64,000 nucleotides of DNA from an uncultured Bacilli bacterium (GTDB lineage: Bacteria; Bacillota_I; Bacilli_A; RF39; UBA660), in contig CAKOTA010000005.1 in assembly GCA_934119965.1 (NCBI GenBank), positions 12,939 to 76,938 on the forward strand, read 5' to 3'. Under the pieces are notes generated by a model. It had not been told where the DNA came from. It did not search any database and saw only the letters and a program-made list of their open reading frames with translations. The position numbers were made by a program, and so were the translations under genes. This document shows positions 5,138 to 57,260 of this stretch, in pieces. Numbering within the stretch: position 1 is the stretch's first letter; every line of letters begins with the position of its first letter.

Positions 5138-6910
5138 TTAATTTTTTCTAATGAACCAAGTTTTTTTGATATCACAACTATCACTTGATGGTTGTGGGTT
5201 TGGTAAATCAAATTTTACTAATACAGGTACCTTAAAAGCTGTTCCAAATGCTATACAATTTCCTGGTTGTAATATTCTTAATTTTTTAACTACATCATTT
5301 GTAATATTAGGTACCATTAATTTAATATATTCAACATCTGTTGGATGTAACATTTTAAATATTAAGAAATTACTACATTGTGATAGTGCTGTTTCTGATA
5401 ATTCAGAAGGTCGTTGAGAAATTAATCCTAATAAAACTCCATATTTTCTTCCTTCTTTTGTTATTCGTTCAAATATATTGTAACCTAATAGATATTTATC
5501 ATTGTCATTTTGGACATATCTATGTGCTTCTTCTAATACTATATGAAATGGTAAACTAGCTCTATTTTTCATATTTTTAGCATAATCAAATAATAGTTTT
5601 GAATATATCTTTGTTATATTTTTGGCTAATCTATCATCTATATAATTGATATTAAAATTAATTATTTGAGCTTTTCCACCTGTTGGTGCTGTTAACAATT
5701 GTTTTATATATGAATCTCTATCAATATATTCAGGATAATCAAAATATACATTATTATCGCTATTAACTAATGAATGAAGTCTTACCCTTAAAACATTTGT
5801 ATCATCATATGTCTTTTCACTTTTTAATGTTCCCTCAGATATTAACGCAAAATCAAAGGCATCTTGTAAATCTTTCAAAGTAAATTTAAAACTTCCGTCA
5901 GGTAAAGACATTTCATATCCTTCTGCTAAATATTTTTCCATAAATGTCATTACCAATTCCATATCTCTCATTTTTCCTGAGGCGTCTATTAATAAACATT
6001 GTTTAATTGGTCGGCTATAACCTGGTTGATATATTATTGTTTCTAGATTAAGCTCAGATGTTTTATATGAGGACAATACTGATATTATTTGATCTCTTAT
6101 TTGTGAAGATGGTCTGCCACTAGATAATATATCAATAATGGCTCTAGCTATAATATCATTTTTAATTTTTATTACTTCTGATTCTTCCCTCGCAAATATA
6201 TTTACTAGTTTTAGGGCTTTTTCTATTATAGGCAATTGTGAATGATTTTCTACACCTAATAATAGAGCTATATCGTCTACACCTAATAACCATAAGGGAA
6301 TTCTAAGTAATTCACTATCAGTTATGCCTGTTTGTGTAGTATATTTTTTGAAATTTATTTGCGGTACTATTTTATTTAAATTACTAAATGCTGTATGATA
6401 TTCTCCATAGGCGTCAAATATAAATATACTGGCTTTATATGGAATAGCATTTCTTTTAGCAAATAGATTTTGAAATATTCTTGCTACACTACAAGATTTA
6501 CCACTTCCAGTAGAACCAAATATAGCAAAATGCGAATCAAAGAAAGAATCTATATCTACAGCAATATCAATATCTTTATATATTGGACTTTTACCAATAT
6601 ATAAATGACTTGCTTCATCATAATTTTCAACACTTATGATTTTTGAAACATCAGATGGATCTATTAATGTTACTTTAGAGGCAAATGATGGTCTTCTAAT
6701 AACACCAAATACAAATTCATTGTTTATTAGTTCTCCTAATAGATTTATATGCGCAATGCCATCATTTAAATCAGTGATTTCACCTACTATTTTACCGTCT
6801 GGATCATCTAATATAACATGTAAACTTATTAAATTTTTACTTTTTAGTATATCTTCTTTTACTTGAACATAAACAATATTTTCTTCAATTCCTATTACCT
6901 TACCTATCAT
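5138..6910 (-). CDS. HerA/FtsK-superfamily ATPase (HAS-barrel + DUF87-like P-loop)
   Basis: The N-terminal HAS-barrel-like beta region (MIGKVIGIEENIVYV...) is followed by Walker A FGSTGSGKS and a Walker B/DExx-like HIVLEEAHRY. The likely true start is the ATG at 6910 with RBS AGGAGTGATATT, downstream of the track start at 7003. Confidence 0.65.
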   Translation of the reverse strand: MIGKVIGIEENIVYVQVKEDILKSKNLISLHVILDDPDGKIVGEITDLNDGIAHINLLGELINNEFVFGVIRRPSFASKVTLIDPSDVSKIISVENYDEASHLYIGKSPIYKDIDIAVDIDSFFDSHFAIFGSTGSGKSCSVARIFQNLFAKRNAIPYKASIFIFDAYGEYHTAFSNLNKIVPQINFKKYTTQTGITDSELLRIPLWLLGVDDIALLLGVENHSQLPIIEKALKLVNIFAREESEVIKIKNDIIARAIIDILSSGRPSSQIRDQIISVLSSYKTSELNLETIIYQPGYSRPIKQCLLIDASGKMRDMELVMTFMEKYLAEGYEMSLPDGSFKFTLKDLQDAFDFALISEGTLKSEKTYDDTNVLRVRLHSLVNSDNNVYFDYPEYIDRDSYIKQLLTAPTGGKAQIINFNINYIDDRLAKNITKIYSKLLFDYAKNMKNRASLPFHIVLEEAHRYVQNDNDKYLLGYNIFERITKEGRKYGVLLGLISQRPSELSETALSQCSNFLIFKMLHPTDVEYIKLMVPNITNDVVKKLRILQPGNCIAFGTAFKVPVLVKFDLPNPQPSSDSCDIKKTWFIRKN

Positions 6911-6980
6911 AATATCACTCCTATTATTGTTATTATACCTTTTTTTAGATAAAAAAAAAAGTATTTTAGAAAAATACTTC

Positions 6981-7229
6981 TTATTTTCTTTTAATCTTTT
7001 CAATTTTATTTTTTAAATATGTATTTAATACTGGTCTAAATATTATCAATAACAATGTTCCTAGTATAATAAATGTCAACATTTCAATAATATAATTATC
7101 TATTAATATTGATAATATTAAAGATACCGCAGCACTTATTGCATACCATATTGTAGCAATATTACTAGTCATAAATTCACCAATTAACAATAAAATAATT
7201 GTTATTATCCATATATACATATACATCAC
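6981..7229 (-). CDS. Small two-TM membrane protein
   Basis: An 82-aa hydrophobic ORF lies directly upstream of the HerA-like gene on the same strand. Confidence 0.4.
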   Translation of the reverse strand: MMYMYIWIITIILLLIGEFMTSNIATIWYAISAAVSLILSILIDNYIIEMLTFIILGTLLLIIFRPVLNTYLKNKIEKIKRK

Positions 7230-17384: not shown

Positions 17385-17696
17385 TTATACATTAGTTTCA
17401 ACATTTTCTTCTTCAAAATCATTAATTCCTGTGACAATCTTTTCAATAACCTCAATTATATTACTGTATACAGCATTTGAAAGTTTATCATCGTCACCAA
17501 ATGAAGCATCTTTATCTATCTTAATATTATCTCCTTTTTCAAAATTTGAAAACAACGCATCATATAATTTTTTTCCATCAACACTTAATGTGCTTTTAGA
17601 AATTTCAAATATTTCTTCTGTCCCATTGTTAATTGTATATTTATCACTTTTATTATACATCGTATATGTTTTTGTCATATCTTTTCCACCTTTCAT
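17385..17696 (-). CDS. Small acidic protein, partner of PHP-ATPase (overlaps its 3' end by 44 nt)
   Basis: The 103-aa ORF is overlapped by the 797-aa gene on the same strand. A hairpin GAGAGC-AAAA-GCTCTC plus T-run terminator follows at ~17215-17240. Confidence 0.4.
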   Translation of the reverse strand: MKGGKDMTKTYTMYNKSDKYTINNGTEEIFEISKSTLSVDGKKLYDALFSNFEKGDNIKIDKDASFGDDDKLSNAVYSNIIEVIEKIVTGINDFEEENVETNV

Positions 17697-20046
17697 TAAT
17701 AGAATCTATTCCACCTTCTATGTTATCAGCAACAATTTTTAAAATATCATAATCCTTATCACAATATTCCAGTGCTCCATTTTGAATATATATTTTATCA
17801 TTTTCATCTTTTCCTATAAAAATAACATTATCAACATCTAAATTAACAATAAATTGGGGATTATGTGTAATTATAATGACCTGTCTATTTTTACTCATAT
17901 CATAAAAATCTCCAAGTATATTTTTCTTTATAGATGGTTGTGATACATCATCTTCAGGTTGATCAATTATATATATTCTATTATCATCAGTTTGATTAGA
18001 TATTAAATCAAAATAAATTTTAGAATTAAAACCTGATGATAATTCCTTTGTTACATCTTTATCACTAGCATCATTTATTGCTTTATCAATTAAAAAATAA
18101 TTATCTATTTCTTTATCTAATTCATTTTTTAGATTTATTAATTTATCATTATAAGAAATGTCTTTATTCCTATTACTAAATCTATCTGGGATAGTACTTG
18201 AATCAATTGAATTTATATCTTTTACACTTTTTCCTAAAACATTATTAATTAAAGTTAGTAAATTGGCGTTTGATACCTCTTTAGTTTTAGTCTTTGCAAC
18301 AAATCTGTATTTTCCAACCTTATTAGATGTTGTCGGTACTTTTTCCTCTTTTATATTAGGTTCATATTTAACTTTATTCCTGTTCTTATAATAGTAATTT
18401 ACAATATTTTCTGAAAAAGAATCCTTATTACTTTCATAATTTGCTATTTTTTCTGTTTCATCTGTTTTAGTCTTCTTTAGTACTTTATCTTTACTTGTGA
18501 ATTCATCATTAATAATATTTATTTTAGAAATTTCAAATAAATTTTGTTTAATTTTATTATTATATTTTGAAATTAATTTAATATTAGAATTTATACTATC
18601 ATTAATATATTTTTCATCTTCTTTATCAAAAAAATCATTTTCCTGTATTTTATCCAATAAAGAATTAATTGATTCAAAATATTCAACTATTTTACCTATT
18701 TTTTTTATTTTTGAATTAATACTAGTAATAGTTGCTTGAGTTACATTTTTAAAATTTAAAGATTTTGAAGTAGCCTCAATAACACATATATCAAAATTTG
18801 TTATTTTATTAAATGCATTACTTTTTTCTTCTTTATTTTTTAATATTGAAATATAATTTTCAATTTCAGATTTATAAATTTCAATATACTTGCTTACTAG
18901 TGGTTCTGCAGGGAAAAATCCATTTAAGAATTCATCACTGTCAAAAGTTTTATTTTCAAACATTTTTCTAATAGAACCTTGCCCATTGAATTTAGAAATA
19001 TTTGATTCAGGTATGGATGAGTTAATTTTAATTTTATTGTTTATTAAATATTCATCATAACTATCTTTAATTTTTTGGTCATTAAGGTAATTATAATTAG
19101 TTAACTTGTGAATAAGTAAAGATTTACCTATCGAATTATCTCCAATTATAACATTAATACCTTTAGAAAGCTTTATATCATATTTATTGTTGTCTATTTC
19201 AATATTAATACTATCTAAATATTTATCAGTAGTAGAATAAAAATTATTAACATAATTAATTCTTTTTGTATTTGTTACTGCCATTGCCAAACCTCTAAAT
19301 GTTGGTAAACATTTTAAATAAGTAAATGAAAAGTCATCATTTTCTTCTGGATATTTAGACCAATCATGACAATCAGAACCTGTTACGAATCTTAAAGTAA
19401 CATCTTTATACTTTTCTTTATTCTTTTCAATATAATTTTTATTAAATATTTCATTTCTTTTTCTCTTGAATTCAAACGATTCAAAATAATCCATGAAAAC
19501 TAATTCATCAAATTTTTCTTTTCCTAAACTCATTACATCGTGACTTCTTGTCTCTTTACTTGATAAGGTCTCTTTTTGATGTGCTATCATTACAACATTT
19601 AAATCTATATTTTTTAAAATATTAAGATATTTATTTTCAGAAAATGAATTTAATTCAATATCGTCATAAAATGGTTTATTGTTTTTTATATCAAATATTT
19701 CATTTTGTATTTTTTTTATTTTTTCTTCATCTTTATCATCAAAAATTGTAATTACATGTAAAACTTTTTTATCATATGTTACTGAAAATTCAACTGCAGG
19801 AAACACTTTTTTAATACTACCTTTGTTTTCTTCTTGCTTTAACTTATTATATATATTGAAATCAAAGTTATCGTGGTCTGAAATAGAACACATATTTATT
19901 TCTCTTTGATTTAGTTTTTCTATTAATAAATCTATATTATCTAAAGTAGATAAATCTACACAATCATCACTTTCTTTGTGTTTAGATGCAATAGAATGAA
20001 TATGAAAATCAACTTTATTCCCTGTTTCAATAATTTTTTCTATCAT
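17653..20046 (-). CDS. PHP-domain phosphoesterase fused to ABC/SMC-like (AAA_21/OLD-type) ATPase
   Basis: N-terminal PHP motifs are present (VDFHIHS, SISDHDNFD, AVEFSV, LHVITIF). The central Walker A is GDNSIGKSLL. The C-terminal Walker B/D-loop is IYIIDQPEDD and the H-loop is IIITHNPQF. Confidence 0.65.
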   Translation of the reverse strand: MIEKIIETGNKVDFHIHSIASKHKESDDCVDLSTLDNIDLLIEKLNQREINMCSISDHDNFDFNIYNKLKQEENKGSIKKVFPAVEFSVTYDKKVLHVITIFDDKDEEKIKKIQNEIFDIKNNKPFYDDIELNSFSENKYLNILKNIDLNVVMIAHQKETLSSKETRSHDVMSLGKEKFDELVFMDYFESFEFKRKRNEIFNKNYIEKNKEKYKDVTLRFVTGSDCHDWSKYPEENDDFSFTYLKCLPTFRGLAMAVTNTKRINYVNNFYSTTDKYLDSINIEIDNNKYDIKLSKGINVIIGDNSIGKSLLIHKLTNYNYLNDQKIKDSYDEYLINNKIKINSSIPESNISKFNGQGSIRKMFENKTFDSDEFLNGFFPAEPLVSKYIEIYKSEIENYISILKNKEEKSNAFNKITNFDICVIEATSKSLNFKNVTQATITSINSKIKKIGKIVEYFESINSLLDKIQENDFFDKEDEKYINDSINSNIKLISKYNNKIKQNLFEISKINIINDEFTSKDKVLKKTKTDETEKIANYESNKDSFSENIVNYYYKNRNKVKYEPNIKEEKVPTTSNKVGKYRFVAKTKTKEVSNANLLTLINNVLGKSVKDINSIDSSTIPDRFSNRNKDISYNDKLINLKNELDKEIDNYFLIDKAINDASDKDVTKELSSGFNSKIYFDLISNQTDDNRIYIIDQPEDDVSQPSIKKNILGDFYDMSKNRQVIIITHNPQFIVNLDVDNVIFIGKDENDKIYIQNGALEYCDKDYDILKIVADNIEGGIDSINERWKRYDKNIYDV

Positions 20047-20228: not shown

Positions 20229-20930
20229 TTAGCAGTTTTGATATTTAAATATTATTATTTTATGGTTTATTCTATTCTTTTTTATCTTATTTGCTATTTC
20301 TGGACCATATATTACTTCAAAACTTTTCTTAGCTTCATTATAAGAATTAAAATTAAAATATGTATCTATTTGTTTATCAACAGTAAAGCCATTGGATAAA
20401 ATCCAATTATTATAATCTCTAGTTCTACTATCTTTATTTCTATTTCTTATTTCTTCAAACTCACTATTTTCATCATTTTCAATTAATATGATTGTTCCAT
20501 TAGATTTTAATAATCGTTTTAACTCACTTAAACATTTATTTCTTTCAGTTATATCTATAATTGTACCTAATACCCACGAACAAACTATTAAATCTACTTT
20601 ATCACTTTCTAAATTGATTTTAGATAAATTAGAACATATAAATTCTGAAGTATCTTTTTTTGATTTTACTTTTGCTTTTTCTAGTTGTTTATCTGATAAA
20701 TCTATTCCAATATATTTTTTTGAATATTCCTCTAATATATTTAAAAACTTACCAGTTCCACATCCAGCATCTAAAACAATTTTATCTTTACATATATGTT
20801 CTAAATAAGAACCAACTTTATTTTCTCCATCTTCAGCAATACTAAAGATTTCATAATAATCATTATTTTCATAATATGCTTTAGAATCTTTTAAGAGATT
20901 TTTGGTATCCATTTTCTTCACCCTTTTCAT
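20229..20930 (-). CDS. Class I SAM-dependent methyltransferase
   Basis: Motif I reads VLDAGCGTGKF. The 233-aa gene is the last in the overlapping operon. Confidence 0.75.
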   Translation of the reverse strand: MKRVKKMDTKNLLKDSKAYYENNDYYEIFSIAEDGENKVGSYLEHICKDKIVLDAGCGTGKFLNILEEYSKKYIGIDLSDKQLEKAKVKSKKDTSEFICSNLSKINLESDKVDLIVCSWVLGTIIDITERNKCLSELKRLLKSNGTIILIENDENSEFEEIRNRNKDSRTRDYNNWILSNGFTVDKQIDTYFNFNSYNEAKKSFEVIYGPEIANKIKKNRINHKIIIFKYQNC

Positions 20931-21963
20931 ACATTTTAGTTTCAGGAAAAATCATATCAACCATATATTTAGCAATATTTTGTGATTTACCTATTGCAGG
21001 TCTGAAATGCATATGCACTCCAGGTACTGTGTTGATTTCAATTATTCTATAACTATCATCATTTTGTAATTTTTCTATTGAATTGGTCATATAATCAATT
21101 CCTACATATGGAAGTCCAGGAAATGCATCTAAAACTCTCATACCAATATCAATAACACTAGGATGTGCTCTATCAGTATAATCTTCACATATTCCTCCCA
21201 TAGCAACATTAGAATTTGGTCTTAAATATACTTTTTCTCCTAAAGTTGGAATAGTATCCATACTTATACCATTTGCTTTAATATATTTATACATTTCTTC
21301 ATCTACAAGTATTTCACATAAAGCATTTGTTCTTGGATTCATTCTACGATAATTTTCTATTGAAATTAATTCTTTTATAGAATGTTCCCCATCTCCATAT
21401 ACATGAGCAGGATCTCTATGAAGTACTGCATAATCTCCATTCTTTGTAACAAACACTCTATATTCTTTTGCATTAAAATATTCTTCTATTAGCACTTTAG
21501 TTTGTAATCCCCTATTTTGAGTTATCTTATCTATTGCTTTTAACAAATCGTTTTCAGAAGTTATATTTGTATAAACATCATAACCATGAGAACCAAAAAC
21601 AGGTTTTAAAACAACAGGGCAATCAAATACATTAAATGCTTTTAAAATATAGTCAGAGTCAGTTATATTGAATACTTCTCCCATAGGAACACTAATACCA
21701 TTATTTTGTAAAATATGTTTTGTTATTCCTTTATCTCCAGCAAGTATTGAAACATTATATGGCATTATTGATGAATCTCTATCATAGATTAATTCCTCAT
21801 GACCATTATAAGATGCTTTTATTAATTCTAAACTCTCATCTAATACTTCAACACTTATACCTCTTTTTAACATTTCATATATCAATATTTTTTGATTAGA
21901 ATGTAAATTTTTATAAATGTTTTCCATTTTACCATCTACTTTCGCCTGAATCGTGGCTTTCAC
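20881..21963 (-). CDS. ATP-grasp family ligase
   Basis: The 360-aa protein has an ATP-grasp fold pattern (VVLKPVFGSHGYDV..., EYRVFV, IEINTVPG). It overlaps the methyltransferase gene by 50 nt and the ESR-repeat gene by 35 nt. Confidence 0.7.
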   Translation of the reverse strand: MKATIQAKVDGKMENIYKNLHSNQKILIYEMLKRGISVEVLDESLELIKASYNGHEELIYDRDSSIMPYNVSILAGDKGITKHILQNNGISVPMGEVFNITDSDYILKAFNVFDCPVVLKPVFGSHGYDVYTNITSENDLLKAIDKITQNRGLQTKVLIEEYFNAKEYRVFVTKNGDYAVLHRDPAHVYGDGEHSIKELISIENYRRMNPRTNALCEILVDEEMYKYIKANGISMDTIPTLGEKVYLRPNSNVAMGGICEDYTDRAHPSVIDIGMRVLDAFPGLPYVGIDYMTNSIEKLQNDDSYRIIEINTVPGVHMHFRPAIGKSQNIAKYMVDMIFPETKMYEKGEENGYQKSLKRF

Positions 21964-22456
21964 TTGAACTACTATACGAAGTATAACTAGAACGAGTAGA
22001 ATCTTTTTTAGGTTTTGCAGGTTTTCTAACTAGTTTTTTTACACTACCTATAAGATCATCTAATTCATCATTAGATTGTTCTAACATTCTTAATTGTTTT
22101 TCTTCTTCTGATTCTCTTTTTGCTTCATCTCTTAATCTTTTTAATTCTTCAATTTTTTGTCTTCTTTGTTCTAAAGCTTGATTAATTCTAGGATTATTAG
22201 ATGTAATAGTAGGCATTTCTCTTTCTAACTTTTCTATTAAAGAATCAATATCATCCAAATTATTATATCTAGAATTATTTACTTGACCTCTAATATCACA
22301 TCTGCTTTCACTATCATTTCTACTTTCATTAGAAAAATTATTACTTGAATAACTACATCTACTTTCTCCAGTATCTCTACTTTCACTTGGTCTAGATACA
22401 TATGATGGAGTATATCTACTTCCTCTACTTTCACTATTATTTCTACTTTCTGACAT
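21929..22456 (-). CDS. ESR-repeat protein (Ser/Arg-rich termini, central coiled coil), candidate modification substrate
   Basis: The 175-aa protein carries seven ESR tripeptides (SESR/GESR/NESR) clustered at both termini and ends in ...SESHDSGESRW. The central segment is a charged helix. It lies 1 nt after the DUF3419 gene and overlaps the ATP-grasp gene. Confidence 0.5.
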   Translation of the reverse strand: MSESRNNSESRGSRYTPSYVSRPSESRDTGESRCSYSSNNFSNESRNDSESRCDIRGQVNNSRYNNLDDIDSLIEKLEREMPTITSNNPRINQALEQRRQKIEELKRLRDEAKRESEEEKQLRMLEQSNDELDDLIGSVKKLVRKPAKPKKDSTRSSYTSYSSSSESHDSGESRW

Positions 22457-22457
22457 T

Positions 22458-23306
22458 TTATTTTCCTCCTCTTTTTAAAATTAAAACACCATCTTTTTTA
22501 TCCTGCGAACTTCCTTCTAAAGCACTCTTAAATTCTACTTGTTGGAAGTTAAAAAATATCTCTTTTACTTTTCTTAAATCATCTATTTCTGTTCTAGGAT
22601 TAGAATTTCCTATATCGTATAAATAAGCAAAATATATTATATCTATTTTTTTTTGAAATTCAATTAATAAATCTCTATATTTTTTTAATATATCACAACT
22701 ATACATTAAACTTAAATAATCAGATATATTCGATAAAAACATATAATCGAAATGTTCATCTACTTTTAAATCTTTTAAACTTGTATTTATATAAGTAATA
22801 TTTGCATCCTTTATTTGTTGTTTTAATAAATTATACTTACTTTTTTCTAAATATAAATTTTGCCACAATTTGCTATTAGGATTAAAATATTTTGTATTAA
22901 ATAAAGAAGAGTTTCTTAATTCAATACCATTATTATCAAATTTAGATAATTGCTCTAACCAAAACATTTTACTTTCATCAGACATATCTAAACTTGAGAT
23001 AATACTATAATCTAAATTCATATTACTTTCAAACAAAAGTAAATTTATAAAATCTTCATAAGATAAATTTTTTAGAGCACTAATTTTTAGATCCATATAT
23101 GGTTTTGTTAATGGATTAATATCAAACGTTGTTATCTCAGCTGCTCCCTGTAATATTACATTTAATATATGGTCCGTTGAACCTGTTACTGTAATAACTT
23201 TTTTACCAGTTAAATTCAAATATTTCATATATCCAGCAATATTTTCAGAAGTAAAAGGATATATACTATTAAATCTTCCCATAACATTTTCCTTTACTTT
23301 TTGCAT
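22458..23306 (-). CDS. DUF3419 family protein (BtaA-like SAM-dependent 3-amino-3-carboxypropyl transferase fold)
   Basis: The 282-aa protein has the pattern VITVTGSTDHILNVILQGAAEITTFDINPLTKPYMDLKISALKNLSYEDF, which resembles the DUF3419 ITSAGxNxLDYL...AVDLNPxQ..LLELK signature. Confidence 0.5.
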   Translation of the reverse strand: MQKVKENVMGRFNSIYPFTSENIAGYMKYLNLTGKKVITVTGSTDHILNVILQGAAEITTFDINPLTKPYMDLKISALKNLSYEDFINLLLFESNMNLDYSIISSLDMSDESKMFWLEQLSKFDNNGIELRNSSLFNTKYFNPNSKLWQNLYLEKSKYNLLKQQIKDANITYINTSLKDLKVDEHFDYMFLSNISDYLSLMYSCDILKKYRDLLIEFQKKIDIIYFAYLYDIGNSNPRTEIDDLRKVKEIFFNFQQVEFKSALEGSSQDKKDGVLILKRGGK

Positions 23307-24738
23307 CTAAAAATCTTACTAAAACTTTATCTCTTTTAATTTCTTCTAAAGAATTATCTCTTAATGATTTAGTTGTGATACAAGTCTTATCACTTTCTAA
23401 TACCCAAGGGCATGGACTTACATTACCAAAATTATTTATATATATAAATTTATCTCCTGCAGGACATCTATGAACAAAATTAGGTTGTTTACCAAAATTG
23501 TAATTAACTATTATTTGTCCATTATATTTTTCTCTTAATTCATCAATTTGAGAAATTAATACTTCGTTTGGTACTGTCTTAACTAATGTTCTATCTTGTC
23601 CAGAAACTGGTTCCATTATTGAAAAGATTATTTCATCAGCTTGTAAACCTACTGAATCCAAAATCAAACTTTCTAAATCGTATTGATTATTTGAATGTAT
23701 AACAGAACCTATTCTTACTTTATTAACTGATTTTCTTAATGCTTCTAAACCTCTTATAGTTCTTTCATAAGTATTATTTCCTCTTACTGATTCATGTTCC
23801 AATTTATCTCCATCTAAACTAACATGTATCATTTTTAACTTTAATTGATTTAATAACTCTACTTTTTCAGGAGTTATTAAAGATGCATTAGTAGATATAT
23901 CAGTAATCAATCTTTCACTTGCATATTTTAAGATTTCTAAAATATCTTTTCTAATAAGTGGTTCTCCACCAGTTATCTTTAAATGTTTGAAATTATGTAA
24001 AACTAATTCATCTATAATATGATAACATTCTTCAGTAGTTAATTCCCCATCAATTTTTTTATTATTACAAGAAAATATACAATAAGAACAATTATAATTA
24101 CATTGATGTGTAATTTCCCAAATTGCCTTACCTTCATTATTTGGTAAAGTAAATTTACATTCCATACTATTTAAAAATTCATTAATTTTGTTTATATCAT
24201 AACCATTATCAGTATTAATTATTAAAAAGTTGTCTGAAAGATATTCTTCTAAATTATCTATTCTTTGTAGTTCAAATCTTTTTAATATATCCTCTTTGGA
24301 TAAATCACTTTCAATTAATCTCTCTAATCTTGTTTTATCAGAAGCAGTAACATAAATTATTTTATCAAACTTATCTCTTAGGTCATCATTAAGTATTAAT
24401 GCCCAATCAACAATTATTGTTTTATTATCAAAACAATCTAAATAATTAAATAAATATTTATACAATACCCCTTTATATTTTTCCATATATTCTTCATTAC
24501 TATAAATATATTTATTTAAAATTAAAGAATTTATTTCATCATATTCTTTTAATTCAGGAATTACATTTTTTAACTCTAAAATATATGAAGCATTTTTATA
24601 TAAACTTCTTCTAAAAATATCTACATCTACATAAATGTAATCAGGACTATATTTTAAAATATCCTCTGATATAGTTGTTTTTCCTGATGACATTCCACCT
24701 GTTATTCCTATTAATCTATTCATACCAACACATCCCAT
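23269..24738 (-). CDS. P-loop nucleoside/nucleotide kinase-like domain fused to radical SAM enzyme with SPASM/twitch-like C-terminus
   Basis: The N-terminal P-loop is GITGGMSSGKTT. The radical SAM cluster motif is CNYNCSYC and the GGEPL motif follows. Additional C-terminal Cys residues (HRCPAGD...SPCPW...CI) are present. Confidence 0.7.
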   Translation of the reverse strand: MGCVGMNRLIGITGGMSSGKTTISEDILKYSPDYIYVDVDIFRRSLYKNASYILELKNVIPELKEYDEINSLILNKYIYSNEEYMEKYKGVLYKYLFNYLDCFDNKTIIVDWALILNDDLRDKFDKIIYVTASDKTRLERLIESDLSKEDILKRFELQRIDNLEEYLSDNFLIINTDNGYDINKINEFLNSMECKFTLPNNEGKAIWEITHQCNYNCSYCIFSCNNKKIDGELTTEECYHIIDELVLHNFKHLKITGGEPLIRKDILEILKYASERLITDISTNASLITPEKVELLNQLKLKMIHVSLDGDKLEHESVRGNNTYERTIRGLEALRKSVNKVRIGSVIHSNNQYDLESLILDSVGLQADEIIFSIMEPVSGQDRTLVKTVPNEVLISQIDELREKYNGQIIVNYNFGKQPNFVHRCPAGDKFIYINNFGNVSPCPWVLESDKTCITTKSLRDNSLEEIKRDKVLVRFLDAKSKGKCYGKI

Positions 24739-26059
24739 ACTTTATTGGAGTAAATGCTGCTATTTTAGTATTCTTATCAGCATTCTCATATATATTCCAA
24801 TCTATATCATTTGAAACCATATTATAATTTTCTTTTTCTAATTCTTTTATAAGTTTATTTATTTCATTAGTTAAATCATTATTTTCTATATTAGGTTTAT
24901 TACTATGAATATATTGTGTTTTATTTACTACTTCTTTATTCTCGTTATATATTGGTGTACCAACACGATATGCTAAATAATGAAGTCTTAATTCGTGAGG
25001 CATTATTGATAAAATTAATTCTTTTGTTTTTATAATATCTTCTTTAGTTGATGATGGATAATCCAAAATAAAACTTGTTCTTATTCTATAACCAATTTTC
25101 TTTGTTTCTTCTATTACTTGTTTTATATAATTAATATCCATATCTTTATTCATTAATTTTAATAATCTTTCACTACCTGTTTCAATACCATAATGAACCC
25201 ATCTAAATCCAACTTTATACATATATTCTAAAAGTTCTTTATCATAACATTTAATACTACATAATGCCCCAAATAAACATTTGATATTTCTTTTTTCAAT
25301 TTCTTTACAAATTTCTATCATTCGTTCTTTATTGACAGTTGCATTATCATCTAAAAAGATTATTTTCTTTGTATTATATTTTTCTATTAACATTTCTATT
25401 TCATTTACAACATCTGTAACATTTCTTCCATTCCACTTACCAAAATAATATGGTGTAGTACAAAATTTACAAGTTCCAACACAACCTCTTGAAGTAATAA
25501 TAGTTCTTGTATCCATATATTTAGTAATATCTAATAAATCTCTATTAGGAATTGGTAACTTATTAAAATCATTTGTTAATATTTTCTTTTCAGTAAAGTA
25601 TATATCTTCTTTATTTTTTATAACTAAATTAGGAATACTTTTTAATTTATCTATATTATTAATATTTTCTATTACATCAGTAATAATTTCGTCTGCTATT
25701 CCTCTAATAACAACATCTATACCATTATCTAAAAATTTTTGATAAAAGTGAGTAGATGTTTTTCCTATCATTATGAATTTAGTAGGTTTATTTGTATTAT
25801 GAATTGTTTCAAATATATTTTGTATTGTTTCAGTAGTATGTAATGGTAATTGATAATCATAGACAAAAACAACTATATTTTCATCAGATAAATATTCATT
25901 AATATTATTATTCATTCTATTAACATCCATATCAATTACTTTTACTCTATCAAATTTTTTATTTATAATTGTTGCTATTTGTAATACATCTAATGGTTCA
26001 GCTAAAATAGACCTATTTGTAAATGGTTTATTTGCTGGATTAACTACTAAAACATTCAT
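24716..26059 (-). CDS. B12-binding domain radical SAM enzyme (class B rSAM)
   Basis: An N-terminal cobalamin-binding Rossmann-like region is followed by the radical SAM motif CVGTCKFC. The 447-aa gene is first in the operon and has an extended -10 TGCTATAAT upstream at ~26085-26110. Confidence 0.75.
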   Translation of the reverse strand: MNVLVVNPANKPFTNRSILAEPLDVLQIATIINKKFDRVKVIDMDVNRMNNNINEYLSDENIVVFVYDYQLPLHTTETIQNIFETIHNTNKPTKFIMIGKTSTHFYQKFLDNGIDVVIRGIADEIITDVIENINNIDKLKSIPNLVIKNKEDIYFTEKKILTNDFNKLPIPNRDLLDITKYMDTRTIITSRGCVGTCKFCTTPYYFGKWNGRNVTDVVNEIEMLIEKYNTKKIIFLDDNATVNKERMIEICKEIEKRNIKCLFGALCSIKCYDKELLEYMYKVGFRWVHYGIETGSERLLKLMNKDMDINYIKQVIEETKKIGYRIRTSFILDYPSSTKEDIIKTKELILSIMPHELRLHYLAYRVGTPIYNENKEVVNKTQYIHSNKPNIENNDLTNEINKLIKELEKENYNMVSNDIDWNIYENADKNTKIAAFTPIKYGMCWYE

Positions 26060-31076: not shown

Positions 31077-31241
31077 ATGTATTATTATGGTGGATACCAA
31101 GGATATGGAAATAGTTGTGGTCAATGTGGTGGATATCCTTCTTATGGAGGATATGGAACAGGATACGGAGCAGCTATTATATTAGTTCTATTCATTTTAT
31201 TAGTTATAATTATTGGTGCTAGAAGTTGGGGAAATAATTAA
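31077..31241 (+). CDS. YjcZ-like small sporulation protein (Gly/Tyr-rich + C-terminal TM)
   Basis: This 54-aa ORF is missing from the track. The product is MYYYGGYQGYGNSCGQCGGYPSYGGYGTGYGAAIILVLFILLVIIIGARSWGNN with RBS AGGAGGGG. A terminator AACTCTATC-AATTAA-GATAGAGTT plus T8 follows. Confidence 0.5.
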   Translation: MYYYGGYQGYGNSCGQCGGYPSYGGYGTGYGAAIILVLFILLVIIIGARSWGNN

Positions 31242-47046: not shown

Positions 47047-47093
47047 TATATGAAAAAAAATAGTTAATTAAAACTATTTTAAATCATAATTTA
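47047..47093. repeat. 47-bp direct repeat copy 1 (duplicate of aminopeptidase 3' end + bidirectional terminator)
   Basis: This sequence is identical to 47490-47536. It contains the hairpin AATAGTT-AATTAA-AACTATT flanked by A8 and a T-rich tract. Confidence 0.7.
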
Positions 47094-47139
47094 TATCTTT
47101 AATTTTTATACAATTAAATTTATAAAATAAATTAATTAA

Positions 47140-47151
47140 GAACATATGTTC
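47140..47151 (+). promoter_or_regulatory. Cheo-box (Firmicute LexA operator) GAACATATGTTC within promoter of toxin-like peptide gene
   Basis: The sequence is a perfect GAAC-N4-GTTC palindrome (AGAACATATGTTCT). It lies immediately upstream of the extended -10 TGGTATAAT at 47152-47160. Confidence 0.55.
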
Positions 47152-47214
47152 TGGTATAATTAACTTAGGAATATTTTAACAGTTGAGTGCTCGCCTCCGA
47201 AAGGAGGTGGTGAA

Positions 47215-47289
47215 ATGACTAAGAAAGATTTTTTAATCTTTGCTCTAATCATTATCATCATTCTACTTATACTTCTATTATTCAAGTGA
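47215..47289 (+). CDS. 24-aa hydrophobic type-I-toxin-like peptide
   Basis: The product is MTKKDFLIFALIIIIILLILLLFK. Its SD GGAGG is sequestered in the hairpin CCUCC-GAAA-GGAGG at 47196-47209, and the ATG lies 6 nt after it. The 5' AGTTGAGTGC is complementary to the 3' flank AGCACTCAAT. Confidence 0.5.
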   Translation: MTKKDFLIFALIIIIILLILLLFK

Positions 47290-47300
47290 TAATGAATTAT

Positions 47301-47406
47301 AAAAAAAAGCACTCAATCTAACAAGATTAAGTGCGTAACCAATTGGCAAGTACTCAACTTTGCGATGTTAAGTATTCCTTTTTTATATTATGCAAGTTTC
47401 CTTGAT
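47301..47406 (-). ncRNA. Convergent antisense small RNA (candidate antitoxin) overlapping the peptide mRNA 3' region
   Basis: The minus-strand promoter is TTGTCA (47436-47441), a 17-nt spacer and TACTAT (47413-47418). The intrinsic terminator GCACUUAAUCU-UGUU-AGAUUGAGUGC plus U8 ends at ~47301, 12 nt after the peptide stop. Confidence 0.4.
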
Positions 47407-47489
47407 ATATCCATAGTAACACAAAAAATATTTTTTGACAAGTTTTCTATTTTGATGATATCAATATAATACCTACTTTAAGAAATTAT

Positions 47490-47536
47490 TATATGAAAAA
47501 AAATAGTTAATTAAAACTATTTTAAATCATAATTTA
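47490..47536. repeat. 47-bp direct repeat copy 2 (native aminopeptidase stop + terminator)
   Basis: This copy is identical to 47047-47093. It contains the TAG stop of the aminopeptidase gene at 47517-47519. Confidence 0.7.
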
Positions 47537-48650
47537 GATGCAATAATTCGGGTAATACAAATTTTCCATCTTTTCTAATCAATGTATGATCAAAGTATAT
47601 TTCTCCTCCACCATATTCTTCTCTTTGAATTAAAACTAAATCCCAATGAATTCCTGAATCATTACCATTATAAGCATCTTTATAAGCCTGACCTGGTGTA
47701 AAATGAATACTTCCTATTATTTTTTCATCATATAGTATATCACCCATTGGATTTCTAATTAATGGATTTAATCCAAATGAAAATTCTCCTACATATCTAG
47801 CTCCTTCATCAGTATTAAATATCTTATTAAGTTCTTCATTATTTTCGTCACATTTTGCTTCAATTATTTTTCCATCTTTAAATAGTAAAGAAACTTTATG
47901 ATAAATATTACCATTATAAGGACTAGGCGTATTATAAGTTATTAAACCATTAACAGATTCCCTAACAGGCGCTGTATAAATTTCACCATCAGGTAGATTA
48001 GCCTCACCAACACAAGGAATAACAGGAATATCTTTAATACTAAATTCAATATCCGTATTTGGACCAGTTATTCTTACAATATCTGTTTGTTCCATTAATT
48101 TTTTTAATGGAGCAATATCATTACTCATTTTTTCATAGTCAAATATCATAACATCTAAAGCATAGTTTTTATATGTATCAGTTGTCATTTTAGCTTTATA
48201 AGCATCAACATTGCTTGGATAATTTAGTAATACCCATTTTCTCTCATTTATTCTTATATAATCACTTTCTTTTGTTGTTAGTGCAATATTTTTTAAAGTG
48301 TTTTCATCAATATTTTTTTTACTATAATCATTAGTTGTATATCTAATATTGATAAAAATATCATAATTATTTACATCATCTAATCCATGTTGTTTTATTT
48401 CTTGATATCTATTTTCACTAGCAGTTTCTAATAAATAACTATTTATACTTTCATCATTTATTCTTACAAAAGGAATTCCTTTATTTAAAGTAATATAGTA
48501 AATTAATCTTTTAATAAAGAAACCATCATTTACATATGTATTTATTAATACTCTTTCATTAACATTCACTTTTACTGAATAATTAACTATTTTTTTAGCT
48601 AATTCATCTAATTTTGATTCCATTTTCTCACTCTTTTCTTTTTTTATCAT
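47517..48650 (-). CDS. Aminopeptidase, M29 (AmpS/PepS) family
   Basis: The 377-aa protein has an N-terminus LAKKIVNYSVKVNVNERVLI typical of the thermophilic-aminopeptidase family. Confidence 0.7.
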   Translation of the reverse strand: MIKKEKSEKMESKLDELAKKIVNYSVKVNVNERVLINTYVNDGFFIKRLIYYITLNKGIPFVRINDESINSYLLETASENRYQEIKQHGLDDVNNYDIFINIRYTTNDYSKKNIDENTLKNIALTTKESDYIRINERKWVLLNYPSNVDAYKAKMTTDTYKNYALDVMIFDYEKMSNDIAPLKKLMEQTDIVRITGPNTDIEFSIKDIPVIPCVGEANLPDGEIYTAPVRESVNGLITYNTPSPYNGNIYHKVSLLFKDGKIIEAKCDENNEELNKIFNTDEGARYVGEFSFGLNPLIRNPMGDILYDEKIIGSIHFTPGQAYKDAYNGNDSGIHWDLVLIQREEYGGGEIYFDHTLIRKDGKFVLPELLHLNYDLK

Positions 48651-48675: not shown

Positions 48676-48864
48676 ATGTACAGATATTATCCAAATATGC
48701 CTATAAGAAATAATGATAGATTTGTTGGTGGTTTCTTAGGTCCATTTGTTTTAGGTGGTATTACTGGTGGTTTATTAGCGCCTGCTTTCTATAATGGCCC
48801 TGCATATAGACCTTGTTATGGTCCATATTGTTCTTATCCATACTACGGTCCATATTATAGATAA
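48676..48864 (+). CDS. Gly/Tyr/Pro-rich small protein (spore-coat-like low-complexity peptide)
   Basis: The 62-aa product has YGPY repeats (CYGPYCSYPYYGPYYR) and a glycine-zipper-like GGFLGPFVLGGITGG. Confidence 0.35.
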   Translation: MYRYYPNMPIRNNDRFVGGFLGPFVLGGITGGLLAPAFYNGPAYRPCYGPYCSYPYYGPYYR

Positions 48865-56049: not shown

Positions 56050-56212
56050 TTTATAACCTCCTACTCTTATTAATTATAACATTTTATAGATAAAAAAAAA
56101 AGAATTTTTATGATAAAAATTCTTACTATAAATATATTTATTAAATAAATTTTATTATTATTCGACAAATTATAATATTTACTTTTTTATATTGATGTGT
56201 TATTATGTATAT

Positions 56213-56317
56213 AGATGAGTTATCGCTCATATAATAAAAGGGAACATTCATTATGAATGTCTACCTATATTTGGTGAGACATTTAAGTCATCGACTTAAG
56301 TGTCATTTTTTTATTAC
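56213..56317 (+). ncRNA. Candidate small RNA (copy 1), antisense to the 3' end of a toxin-like ORF
   Basis: The -35 TTTACT is at 56178-56183 and the -10 TATTAT at 56201-56206. The terminator GACAUUUAAGUC-AUC-GACUUAAGUGUC plus U7 sits at 56277-56317. Confidence 0.4.
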
Positions 56318-56395
56318 TAAAACCAATATTATTAGTTGTAATAAAATAAAGGAGAAAGAAGAAAGTATTTTTAAATAAAACTCTCTTTTTTTCAT
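56303..56395 (-). CDS. 30-aa hydrophobic type-I-toxin-like peptide (present only in copy 1)
   Basis: The product is MKKREFYLKILSSFSFILLQLIILVLVIKK. RBS GGAGG lies 7 nt upstream of the ATG at 56395. The stop overlaps the plus-strand sRNA terminator. In copy 2 the RBS and ATG are replaced (…AATATTAAAAGAAGAG…). Confidence 0.4.
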   Translation of the reverse strand: MKKREFYLKILSSFSFILLQLIILVLVIKK

Positions 56396-56493
56396 CTTTA
56401 AACCTCCTTTCTTTTTTTAGATAAGAGGTAGACACCCATTAAATGTTCCATTTTATATTTTATAATATTTAAAACAAAAAGTAATTATTTTTC

Positions 56494-56745
56494 GTTCGAC
56501 AAAATTAGACATAGTTATAATATTTACTTTTTTTTATTGGTGTGTTACTATGTATATAGATGAGTTATTGCTCATATAATAAAAAAGGAACATTCATTAT
56601 GAATGTCTACCAAAATTTGACTAGACATTTAAGTCATCGACTTAAGTGTCATTTTTTTATTACTAAAACTAATATTATTAGCTGTAATAAAATAAAGGAG
56701 AAAGAAAAAAGTATTTTTAAATAAAACTCTCTTTTCTCTTCTTTT
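56494..56745. repeat. Tandem duplication unit, copy 2
   Basis: This is a direct repeat of 56161-56400 with a ~10-nt insertion near its start and substitutions that remove the minus-strand RBS/ATG. Confidence 0.6.
56558..56657 (+). ncRNA. Candidate small RNA (copy 2)
   Basis: The -35 TTTACT is at 56523-56528, the -10 TACTAT at 56546-56551, and the same terminator hairpin plus T7 ends at ~56657. Confidence 0.35.
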
Positions 56746-56822
56746 AATATTCTTTTTCGATTAAGAAATAGTGTTTTATAGCAAAAAAAGAATCTATTAT
56801 TTTTATTATATTGCTTATAATT

Positions 56823-57260
56823 TTATATTTTTTTTCTTAAGATAGTTGTAAAATTTAAAAAATTATTATTTTTATACAAATTTATTGCATTTTGATTTTT
56901 ATCAAATGCTTGCACATCAATAAATTTTACATTTCGAGATTTTAGCTCTAATTCCATCTTTTTTAGAAGTTCAGTAGCTATTCCTTGTTTTCGGTATTCT
57001 TTATTAACATATAAGAAATTAATTTTTGCGATATTATTTATATTAATATCTCTCTTGATAATGCTTGAATATATAAACCCACATATCATATTGTTTTTTT
57101 CAAATACAAAAATGATAATATTTTCATCCAAACCGTATGATAAACTTTTAAATTTGAATTTTTTATTATAATTTTCATCATACTTTGCCTCTTCAAAAAG
57201 AAATTTTTTAAATAAATAATCAAGTTCAATAAAATCTCTATTCTCTGCTTTTCTTATCAT
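56823..57260 (-). CDS. GNAT family N-acetyltransferase
   Basis: The acetyl-CoA binding motif RKQGIATELLKKME is present. The length is 145 aa. Confidence 0.75.
   Translation of the reverse strand: MIRKAENRDFIELDYLFKKFLFEEAKYDENYNKKFKFKSLSYGLDENIIIFVFEKNNMICGFIYSSIIKRDININNIAKINFLYVNKEYRKQGIATELLKKMELELKSRNVKFIDVQAFDKNQNAINLYKNNNFLNFTTILRKKI

Follow-up and report, generated by a model that had tools for sequence, protein, structure and literature searches.

In the genome of an uncultured human-gut Bacilli bacterium, we analysed a 64,000-nt stretch of contig CAKOTA010000005.1 (GC content 24%), referred to below as the window; all coordinates are window positions. Between positions 47094 and 47489 lies a 396-bp insert, module A, which carries what we predict to be a type I toxin-antitoxin (TA) cassette: a gene for a 24-residue hydrophobic peptide, a convergent antisense RNA that would act as its antitoxin and, inside the toxin promoter, a putative operator for the SOS repressor LexA. 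We assign a probability of about 0.5 to this reading as a whole, that is, a type I TA cassette of bsrG/SR4 architecture placed under SOS control. Its two parts deserve separate grades: the locus is likely a type I TA-like module, and, granting this, we rate LexA control of the toxin promoter as somewhat better than an even bet. Two related copies of the module occur some 9 kb further on, and the insertion of module A is polymorphic within a single species.

The toxin promoter occupies positions 47132-47160 of the plus strand, with a -35 element TTAATT (47132-47137), a 17-nt spacer and an extended -10 element TGGTATAAT (47152-47160). Taking the transcript start from the -10 element and its end from a U-run at 47379-47384, we predict a toxin mRNA of ~220 nt (47167-47388). 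This RNA has a minimum free energy of -65 kcal/mol and folds far better than expected (z = -7.1, as for all fold z-scores computed against dinucleotide shuffles; 0/200 shuffles fold as well). The predicted structure is closed by a long helix, P1, whose 5' strand (47167-47195) pairs with 47345-47379 over 27 bp and which ends directly at the U-run. Next to this helix, a perfect hairpin CCUCC-GAAA-GGAGG (CCTCCGAAAGGAGG, 47194-47207), named SL1, buries the Shine-Dalgarno (SD) sequence at 47203-47207; it is unique in the window, where 0.02 would be expected. According to the fold prediction, the SD has a probability of at most 0.04 of being unpaired, with or without the 3' untranslated region (UTR) blocked. 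The start-codon region is predicted to pair with the interior of the open reading frame (ORF), forming an ORF stem, and a further stem-loop, SL3 (47309-47334, plus strand), mirrors the antisense terminator described below.

A previous sequence-only reading of this stretch had proposed an SD-sequestering hairpin 6 nt before the ATG and a further complementarity between the 5' and 3' regions. The hairpin is indeed perfect, but GGAGG and the ATG (47215) are 7 nt apart; the complementarity, AGTTGAGTGC at 47182-47191/47310-47318, does exist, but the much longer P1 is preferred over it, leaving the pairing first noted as a shorter alternative. The same reading had overlooked a terminator-like end on the plus strand at 47349-47384. 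The predicted 3' end of the mRNA (47345-47384, plus strand) comprises the P1 3' strand (47345-47379), an alternative hairpin (47349-47358/47368-47377) and the U-run. The ORF itself (47215-47289 including the stop codon, plus strand) does encode the hydrophobic 24-residue peptide that had been announced, MTKKDFLIFALIIIIILLILLLFK. An 18-residue uncharged, mostly aliphatic run from Phe6 to Phe23 follows a charged N-terminus and precedes a C-terminal Lys, a composition that agrees with the small (fewer than about 60 amino acids), hydrophobic, membrane-spanning product characteristic of type I TA systems.

On the opposite strand, a promoter TTGTCA-17-TACTAT (47441-47413, minus strand), with a -10 element extended by a preceding TG, is predicted to drive an antisense RNA of ~105 nt (47406-47300, minus strand; z = -5.1, four hairpins). 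The RNA would end at a terminator (47334-47301, minus strand) made of an 11-bp stem (47334-47309) followed by U8 (47308-47301), which is the sole terminator-like site in 800 nt, compared with 0.0 in shuffles. All the pieces of the convergent antisense unit claimed by the sequence-only reading, from its promoter to a terminator lying past the peptide stop codon, are thus present. The predicted RNA is fully complementary to ~88 nt of the toxin mRNA 3' UTR, P1 3' strand included; a type I TA system is expected to contain just such an antisense gene, equipped with its own promoter and terminator, whose RNA can pair with the toxin mRNA. Within the antisense terminator, we also noticed a promoter-like site, TTGTTA-17-TATAAT (10/12 matches), at 47296-47324 (minus strand), whose activity, if any, would yield transcription antisense to the whole toxin ORF toward the deacetylase gene. 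We did not retain it as a real promoter: it probably arises as a side effect of the U-run, and the related modules presented below have not conserved it.

The sequence-only reading had described a single module and overlooked two related copies at 56 kb that share its layout. Between a GNAT acetyltransferase gene and prfB, the B locus (56160-56851) is made of two tandem 346-nt units with their toxin genes on the minus strand: B2 (56160-56505) and B1 (56506-56851). A search for short hydrophobic ORFs with an SD in front of them retrieved, in B2, a 30-residue ORF (56395-56303, minus strand), MKKREFYLKILSSFSFILLQLIILVLVIKK; the unit also has an SD hairpin and a closing helix, together with a convergent antisense RNA. 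The B2 antisense gene, on the plus strand, has its promoter at 56178-56206 and its terminator at 56278-56304 followed by T7, and would produce a four-hairpin RNA as in module A. B1 contains a pseudo-toxin devoid of SD and start codon next to an intact antisense gene (terminator 56624-56650, plus strand), and it shows this same combination, SD and ATG missing and antisense gene kept, in every strain examined. In both units, the convergent antisense gene ends with a 12-bp terminator stem followed by T7. Tandem copies, an orphan antitoxin and copy-number variation between strains by recombination are typical of type I TA loci.

Several lines of evidence tie the B units to module A. A 12-mer of the module A antisense promoter, TGTGTTACTATG, is identical in B1, and the antisense extended -10 region at the B locus, TGTGTTAYTATG, is this same 12-mer; the pattern common to the antisense promoters matches exactly the three modules in the window, with 0 matches expected by chance. 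Between A and B1, the 3' halves show a significant similarity (local z = 6.8, 0/500 shuffles). The B2 mRNA (z = -8.6) is predicted to adopt the same layout of P1, SD hairpin and SL3, with the same 3'-end arrangement, on an inner P1 (GGGUGUCUACC with GGUAGACAUUC) that is unrelated in sequence to that of A. RNAalifold, applied to a MAFFT alignment of A and B2, recovered the outer P1 with one compensatory and two wobble changes. At the N-terminus, moreover, both peptides have two basic residues, an acidic one and Phe in succession (KKDF in A, KREF in B2), and both have Lys at the C-terminus. Two other strains display further rearrangements of the B locus. One of them (L030, 1047-1390) has a single recombinant B unit with no intact toxin. 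In the other (L027, 3752-6384), the B2 leader is interrupted by a ~1.7-kb insertion of three genes (59 amino acids, 120 amino acids and a 198-residue GNAT protein), bordered on both sides by GAAAGGAG, and a third, antitoxin-only copy lies beyond.

Substitutions between strains are informative about which parts of module A are maintained. We compared the window with the two other insert-carrying strains, L011 and L012 (three in all), which differ from it by 10 substitutions in the insert. Only one of the 10 falls within the 45% of insert positions that we classed as functional (P = 0.02, the test being post hoc). The LexA core, the -10, the SD and anti-SD sequences, and the promoter and terminator of the antisense RNA are unchanged; both substitutions in the ORF (47244 and 47286) are synonymous; the SD hairpin is altered in its loop only, from GAAA to GAAG; and a single substitution (47347) affects the antisense RNA among the three strains. 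In the toxin promoter, the -35 element changes from TTAATT to TTGATT, a better match, and the extended -10 region becomes CGGTATAAT with loss of its TG, two changes that appear to offset each other.

Among known systems, the architecture of module A is most readily compared with that of bsrG/SR4 from the Bacillus subtilis SPbeta prophage and its kin txpA/RatA, bsrE/SR5 and yonT/SR6, which present the same convergent 3' overlap, P1 helix, buried SD and hairpin opposite the antitoxin terminator (PMC3834814). In the bsrG mRNA, whose structure was probed, nucleotides 1-35 pair with 232-262 in P1, the SD is contained in SL1, and the SR4 terminator loop first contacts loop 3 (PMC3834814). The predicted folds of both A and B2 comprise the P1 helix, an SD within SL1, an SL3 opposite the antitoxin terminator loop and the convergent 3' overlap. 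A short hydrophobic peptide and a low-GC Firmicute host are likewise common to both systems. We scanned the 1.5-kb region against the 4227 families of Rfam and obtained four sub-threshold matches, among which the sole type I toxin model was BsrG (14.7 bits, E = 1); this weak alignment spans the 5' helix strand, the SD hairpin and the Met-Thr start. Differences are nonetheless clear. The BsrG peptide has 38 residues, versus 24 here, with no detectable similarity, and no homology of our toxin to BsrG or TxpA was found in Pfam, NCBIfam or PHROGs at E <= 10; the antisense RNA is 183 nt long in B. subtilis, versus ~105 nt here; and the U-tract here directly follows P1, a separate terminator stem-loop being absent. 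Moreover, bsrG is heat-shock responsive with no LexA box reported. Module A lies outside any recognisable prophage. Taken together, the paralogues, the structures kept on differing sequence, the substitution pattern and the point-by-point agreement with the probed bsrG mRNA give good in silico support to the type I TA arrangement, a 3' antisense RNA combined with an SD-sequestering hairpin, that the sequence-only reading had put forward.

The SOS logic, for its part, recalls tisB/istR-1 and dinQ/agrB of Escherichia coli, where a promoter containing a LexA operator drives the gene of a hydrophobic peptide (fewer than 30 amino acids), as predicted here. According to PMC5066626, these systems also combine a constitutive RNA antitoxin with a primary toxin transcript kept inert by its structure, two further properties that we predict for module A. 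The E. coli operator, however, is CTGT-N8-ACAG instead of GAAC-N4-GTTC, the phylum is different and the sequences show no similarity; in E. coli, the antitoxins are encoded divergently and target the 5' UTR or standby site by pairing, whereas the RNA described here is cis-antisense over the 3' UTR. We found neither the divergent trans-acting antitoxin on the 5' UTR nor the peptide homology that define the tisB/dinQ type, and no match to a TisB or DinQ model. A third comparison is with Fst/RNA II (the par locus of pAD1), which has the same convergent transcription, terminator-loop interaction, buried ribosome-binding site and small hydrophobic Firmicute peptide. Module A differs from it in having no DRa/DRb direct repeats and no shared bidirectional terminator: its 5'/3' repeat is inverted and its two terminators are separate. 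The peptide also lacks the Fst/Ldr signature, a conserved Trp followed by a charged tail, as given in PMC2887945, and matched no Fst or Ldr model. Because the Rfam and protein-family searches brought no match at threshold, we consider the module a member of none of these families, bsrG/SR4-like in architecture and tisB/istR-1- or dinQ/agrB-like in SOS logic.

Searches for relatives covered the GTDB species-representative genomes (genome_contigs), the JGI metagenomes, IMG/VR, and phage and plasmid collections, and none of these contained a homologue. The sequence-only reading had suggested looking for the module in related genomes: L011 and L012, of the same species, do carry it, and none of the other taxa scanned does. 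Blastn searches with the module returned nothing in phages and just a 60-nt low-complexity match in plasmids, and the three-module pattern had no match in IMG/VR. A pattern combining LexA box, -10 element and CCUCC/GGAGG hairpin gave 0 matches in IMG/VR, 6 in the GTDB species-representative genomes and 4 in the JGI metagenomes, all 10 of which turned out to be unrelated. Eight of the 10 are high-GC sequences (69-75%) with actinobacterial-type TCGAAC-N4-GTTCGA promoters; the two mid-GC matches are a Butyricicoccus sp. locus (L005) and an array of Cheo-like boxes (L024). The latter (UMFP01014618.1, 1046-1270, 52% GC) contains eight perfect GAAC-N4-GTTC boxes plus near-matches in ~200 nt, upstream of a CCCUCC/GGAGGG hairpin, and looks like an unusually dense LexA-operator cluster, unrelated to the window. 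Two other ideas on the nature of the peptide were discarded. A leader peptide or attenuator acting on a downstream gene does not fit, the next plus-strand gene being convergent; SOS cell-division inhibitors of the YneA/SosA type are larger and have extracellular domains.

The putative LexA operator, AGAACATATGTTCT, is a 14-nt palindrome (47139-47152) with an ATAT centre and symmetric flanks, which adjoins the extended -10 element. Its core, GAACATATGTTC (47140-47151), sits in the promoter spacer, a position at which a repressor, once bound, would keep RNA polymerase out, and the letters agree with the sequence-only reading, which had reported an extended -10 promoter with a perfect Firmicute LexA core between -35 and -10. 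GAAC-N4-GTTC is the B. subtilis LexA operator, the Clostridia form being GAAC-N4-GTT(C/T) (PMC4234289). This motif has a single occurrence in the 64 kb, versus 0.29 expected per window, and at least one copy is present in 25 of 100 shuffled windows; the chance of finding it inside this particular promoter of ~30 nt, by arithmetic from the shuffle-scan density, is ~1e-4. The core is invariant in the three strains with module A, and the flanking positions 47134 and 47152 vary. Both features expected of a Firmicute SOS gene, a Cheo-type GAAC-N4-GTTC operator overlapping the promoter and its conservation at orthologous loci, are therefore observed. What points to SOS control is this one perfect, well-placed and strain-conserved Cheo-type box.

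The most serious competing explanation retains the type I TA cassette and drops the operator: the palindrome may have arisen by chance, serve another dimeric regulator or be left over from a delivery element, and control would then be post-transcriptional only, as in bsrG/SR4. We hold this to be possible, if the less likely course. The B modules work, or once worked, without the box; the motif is common enough to occur in 25% of shuffled windows; and the reviews consulted report induction of type I TA systems by the SOS response for E. coli only. Chance, however, accounts poorly for a perfect 12-nt Firmicute core with symmetric flanks placed in the promoter spacer (~1e-4, as computed above), or for a core that remained intact while both adjacent promoter positions changed between strains. 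The organism, in addition, has sporulation genes (SpoIVA, YunB, PdaB-like), alongside NrdD, the anaerobic ribonucleotide reductase, and RF2; spore-forming Bacillota normally encode LexA.

A number of results weigh against an SOS-controlled type I TA cassette. On the plus strand, the terminator is a weak one with 2 G-C pairs, which the scanner did not call. Compared with Pfam, NCBIfam and PHROGs, the peptides of A and B2 yielded noise only at E <= 10, and the 14.7 bits of the BsrG model (RF01412) are far below its gathering threshold of 55; in the window, only a tRNA reaches the gathering threshold of an Rfam model. Single-sequence nhmmer found no link between A and B, so that their relationship is claimed via short blocks, shuffle statistics and architecture alone. 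Module A is missing from most strains and one strain has no intact B toxin, hence the modules are dispensable. Concerning the SOS part, the LexA box is absent from the B1 and B2 copies in every strain examined; since it occurs in module A alone, SOS control is not a family trait. Neither lexA nor a canonical SOS gene lies within the 64-kb window, and the other matches to GAAC-N4-GTTT in the window are all within ORFs. The sequence-only reading saw the logic of txpA/RatA or bsrG/SR4 and that of tisB/istR united in one compact locus: we retain the type I TA architecture, and its SOS half depends on the box, which the paralogues do not have.

If the cassette is indeed a type I TA system under SOS control, analogy with bsrG/SR4 and tisB suggests how it would operate. 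LexA bound at AGAACATATGTTCT would repress the toxin promoter, and toxin mRNA would rise only after DNA damage, like that of tisB and dinQ, while the minus-strand promoter would constitutively supply the ~105-nt antisense RNA. The ~220-nt toxin mRNA would be inert as made, with P1 hiding its 5' end and SL1 its SD. Docking of the antisense RNA would occur loop to loop, the SL3 loop being complementary to the loop of its terminator, and would be followed by zipping along the 3' UTR; cleavage of the duplex, of the RNase III type, would lead to mRNA decay. When the mRNA is in excess, or is processed, the 24-residue transmembrane peptide would be made, insert in the membrane and damage or depolarise it. 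The coupling of DNA damage to a membrane-depolarising peptide would then have arisen independently on a bsrG/SR4-type RNA chassis in a Gram-positive gut anaerobe, with a bearing on persister formation after quinolones or metronidazole in gut Firmicutes. Nature has also provided an experiment, with strains that differ by exactly the 396-bp insert, paralogues without a LexA box and one paralogue reduced to its antitoxin.

Module A is polymorphic between strains. It is flanked by a direct repeat that is exact over 47 nt (left copy 47047-47093, right copy 47490-47536) and 98% identical over 50 nt when compared with 47490-47539. The right copy is the true 3' end and terminator of an aminopeptidase gene (47517-48650, minus strand; 377 residues for the ORF in the window, 368 for the called gene), and the left copy, which reproduces the last codons, the stop and an AT-rich terminator hairpin, corresponds to a duplicated target. 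The unique insert of 396 bp (47094-47489) contains no ORF other than the peptide and no recombinase. In the same species, the site is filled in the window, L011 and L012, and empty, with one repeat copy and no insert, in 10 of the 10 displayed loci (L037-L046), 10 further similar places being listed; in other samples, short contigs break off within the repeat. The three empty loci that were measured (L037, L040 and L042) have 98-99% nucleotide identity to the window in the flanking genes. In related species the site is empty in seven loci (L009, L010, L015, L017, L019, L020 and, from gene coordinates, L021); in the relatives L009, L015, L017 and L019-L021, the two flanking genes are 44-56 nt apart with one repeat copy. 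Another relative (L008, 4470-4577; L013 and L014, 1-33), with 88% identity in the aminopeptidase and 80% in the deacetylase, shows a different sequence right past the aminopeptidase stop, with a better terminator, and its contigs break within the repeat; the same site may hold a different insert there.

Target-duplicating repeats and an empty site in relatives are the marks of an integrated element, and both are observed here. No recombinase was found among the insert ORFs and no intact element with the same attachment sequence in phages, plasmids or IMG/VR; a 31-mer from the direct repeat had no match in IMG/VR. Being strain-variable and bounded by a 47-nt duplication, the locus is an accessory cassette and no core SOS gene. 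A small circle integrated by the Campbell mechanism would yield this structure, as would a remnant of a larger element similar to cis-mobilizable elements (CIME). The latter, att-flanked and non-autonomous remnants of integrative and conjugative elements (ICE) or prophages, have the same long repeats copying the 3' end of a target, the same presence/absence pattern and no recombinase; here, on the other hand, the unique part is just 396 bp, there is no related intact element, and the attachment site has no match in IMG/VR. It is conceivable, though we think it rather unlikely, that the 396-bp unit is itself a mobile, cargo-only cassette (toxin, antitoxin RNA and LexA switch) that enters the terminator hairpin at a gene 3' end, duplicates 47 nt, and is spread or lost between strains, for instance as a circle formed by recombination of the repeats or through mobilisation in trans by a recombinase. 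It would then be a minimal selfish element of a kind undescribed for type I TA systems, in which DNA damage would tie toxin expression to the state of the host. For type I TA systems, it has been argued (PMC2887945) that they do not spread horizontally. Whatever the mechanism, such sharp boundaries and the duplication of 47 nt of the target prompt one to ask how tiny TA cassettes move.

The insertion also bears on whether we are dealing with a TA pair at all. Many short hydrophobic bacterial peptides are non-toxic at native levels and no toxin family was matched, so one could see in module A the gene of a small membrane protein accompanied by a cis-antisense RNA, for example an antisense-tuned modulator of a membrane complex. 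We judge this improbable, as it is toxin mRNAs that typically combine a closing helix and a hidden SD with a convergent antisense RNA dedicated to them and equipped with its own promoter and terminator, as the toxin start decayed in B1 while the antisense gene was kept and the intact toxin was lost in L030, and as an accessory, insertion-borne site fits a selfish module better. Least probable is an inert scar, what is left, decayed and non-functional, of a larger prophage, ICE or CIME-like integrative element that targeted the aminopeptidase 3' end: the 47-nt repeats including a gene 3' end are the footprint expected of site-specific integration, and the insert is present or absent within one species and has no recombinase, but substitutions avoid the predicted functional positions and those in the ORF are all synonymous, the promoter, SD and terminator elements are all intact, neither the insert nor the repeat matches phages, plasmids or IMG/VR, and a remnant could in any case be functional, TA modules being often what survives.

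Beyond the type I modules, the window contains other genes worth recording. Two minus-strand genes may serve defence, both with matches below family cut-offs: a HerA-like, anti-phage-associated helicase (5138-7003) and an AAA-like ATPase of the TrlF/Spaf_1101 family (17653-20046). A minus-strand cluster (20229-26059) comprises a methyltransferase, an ATP-grasp ligase, a DUF3419 protein, a radical SAM/SPASM protein fused to a dephospho-CoA-kinase-like domain, and a B12-binding radical SAM protein, and looks like a cluster for peptide modification, of the ribosomally synthesized and post-translationally modified peptide (RiPP) type, or for a cofactor. Finally, two plus-strand ORFs rich in Gly, Tyr and Pro may encode spore-coat-like proteins: one of 54 residues with a hydrophobic tail (31077-31241), and one of 62 residues (48676-48864), which is conserved beside the aminopeptidase gene in all relatives examined.

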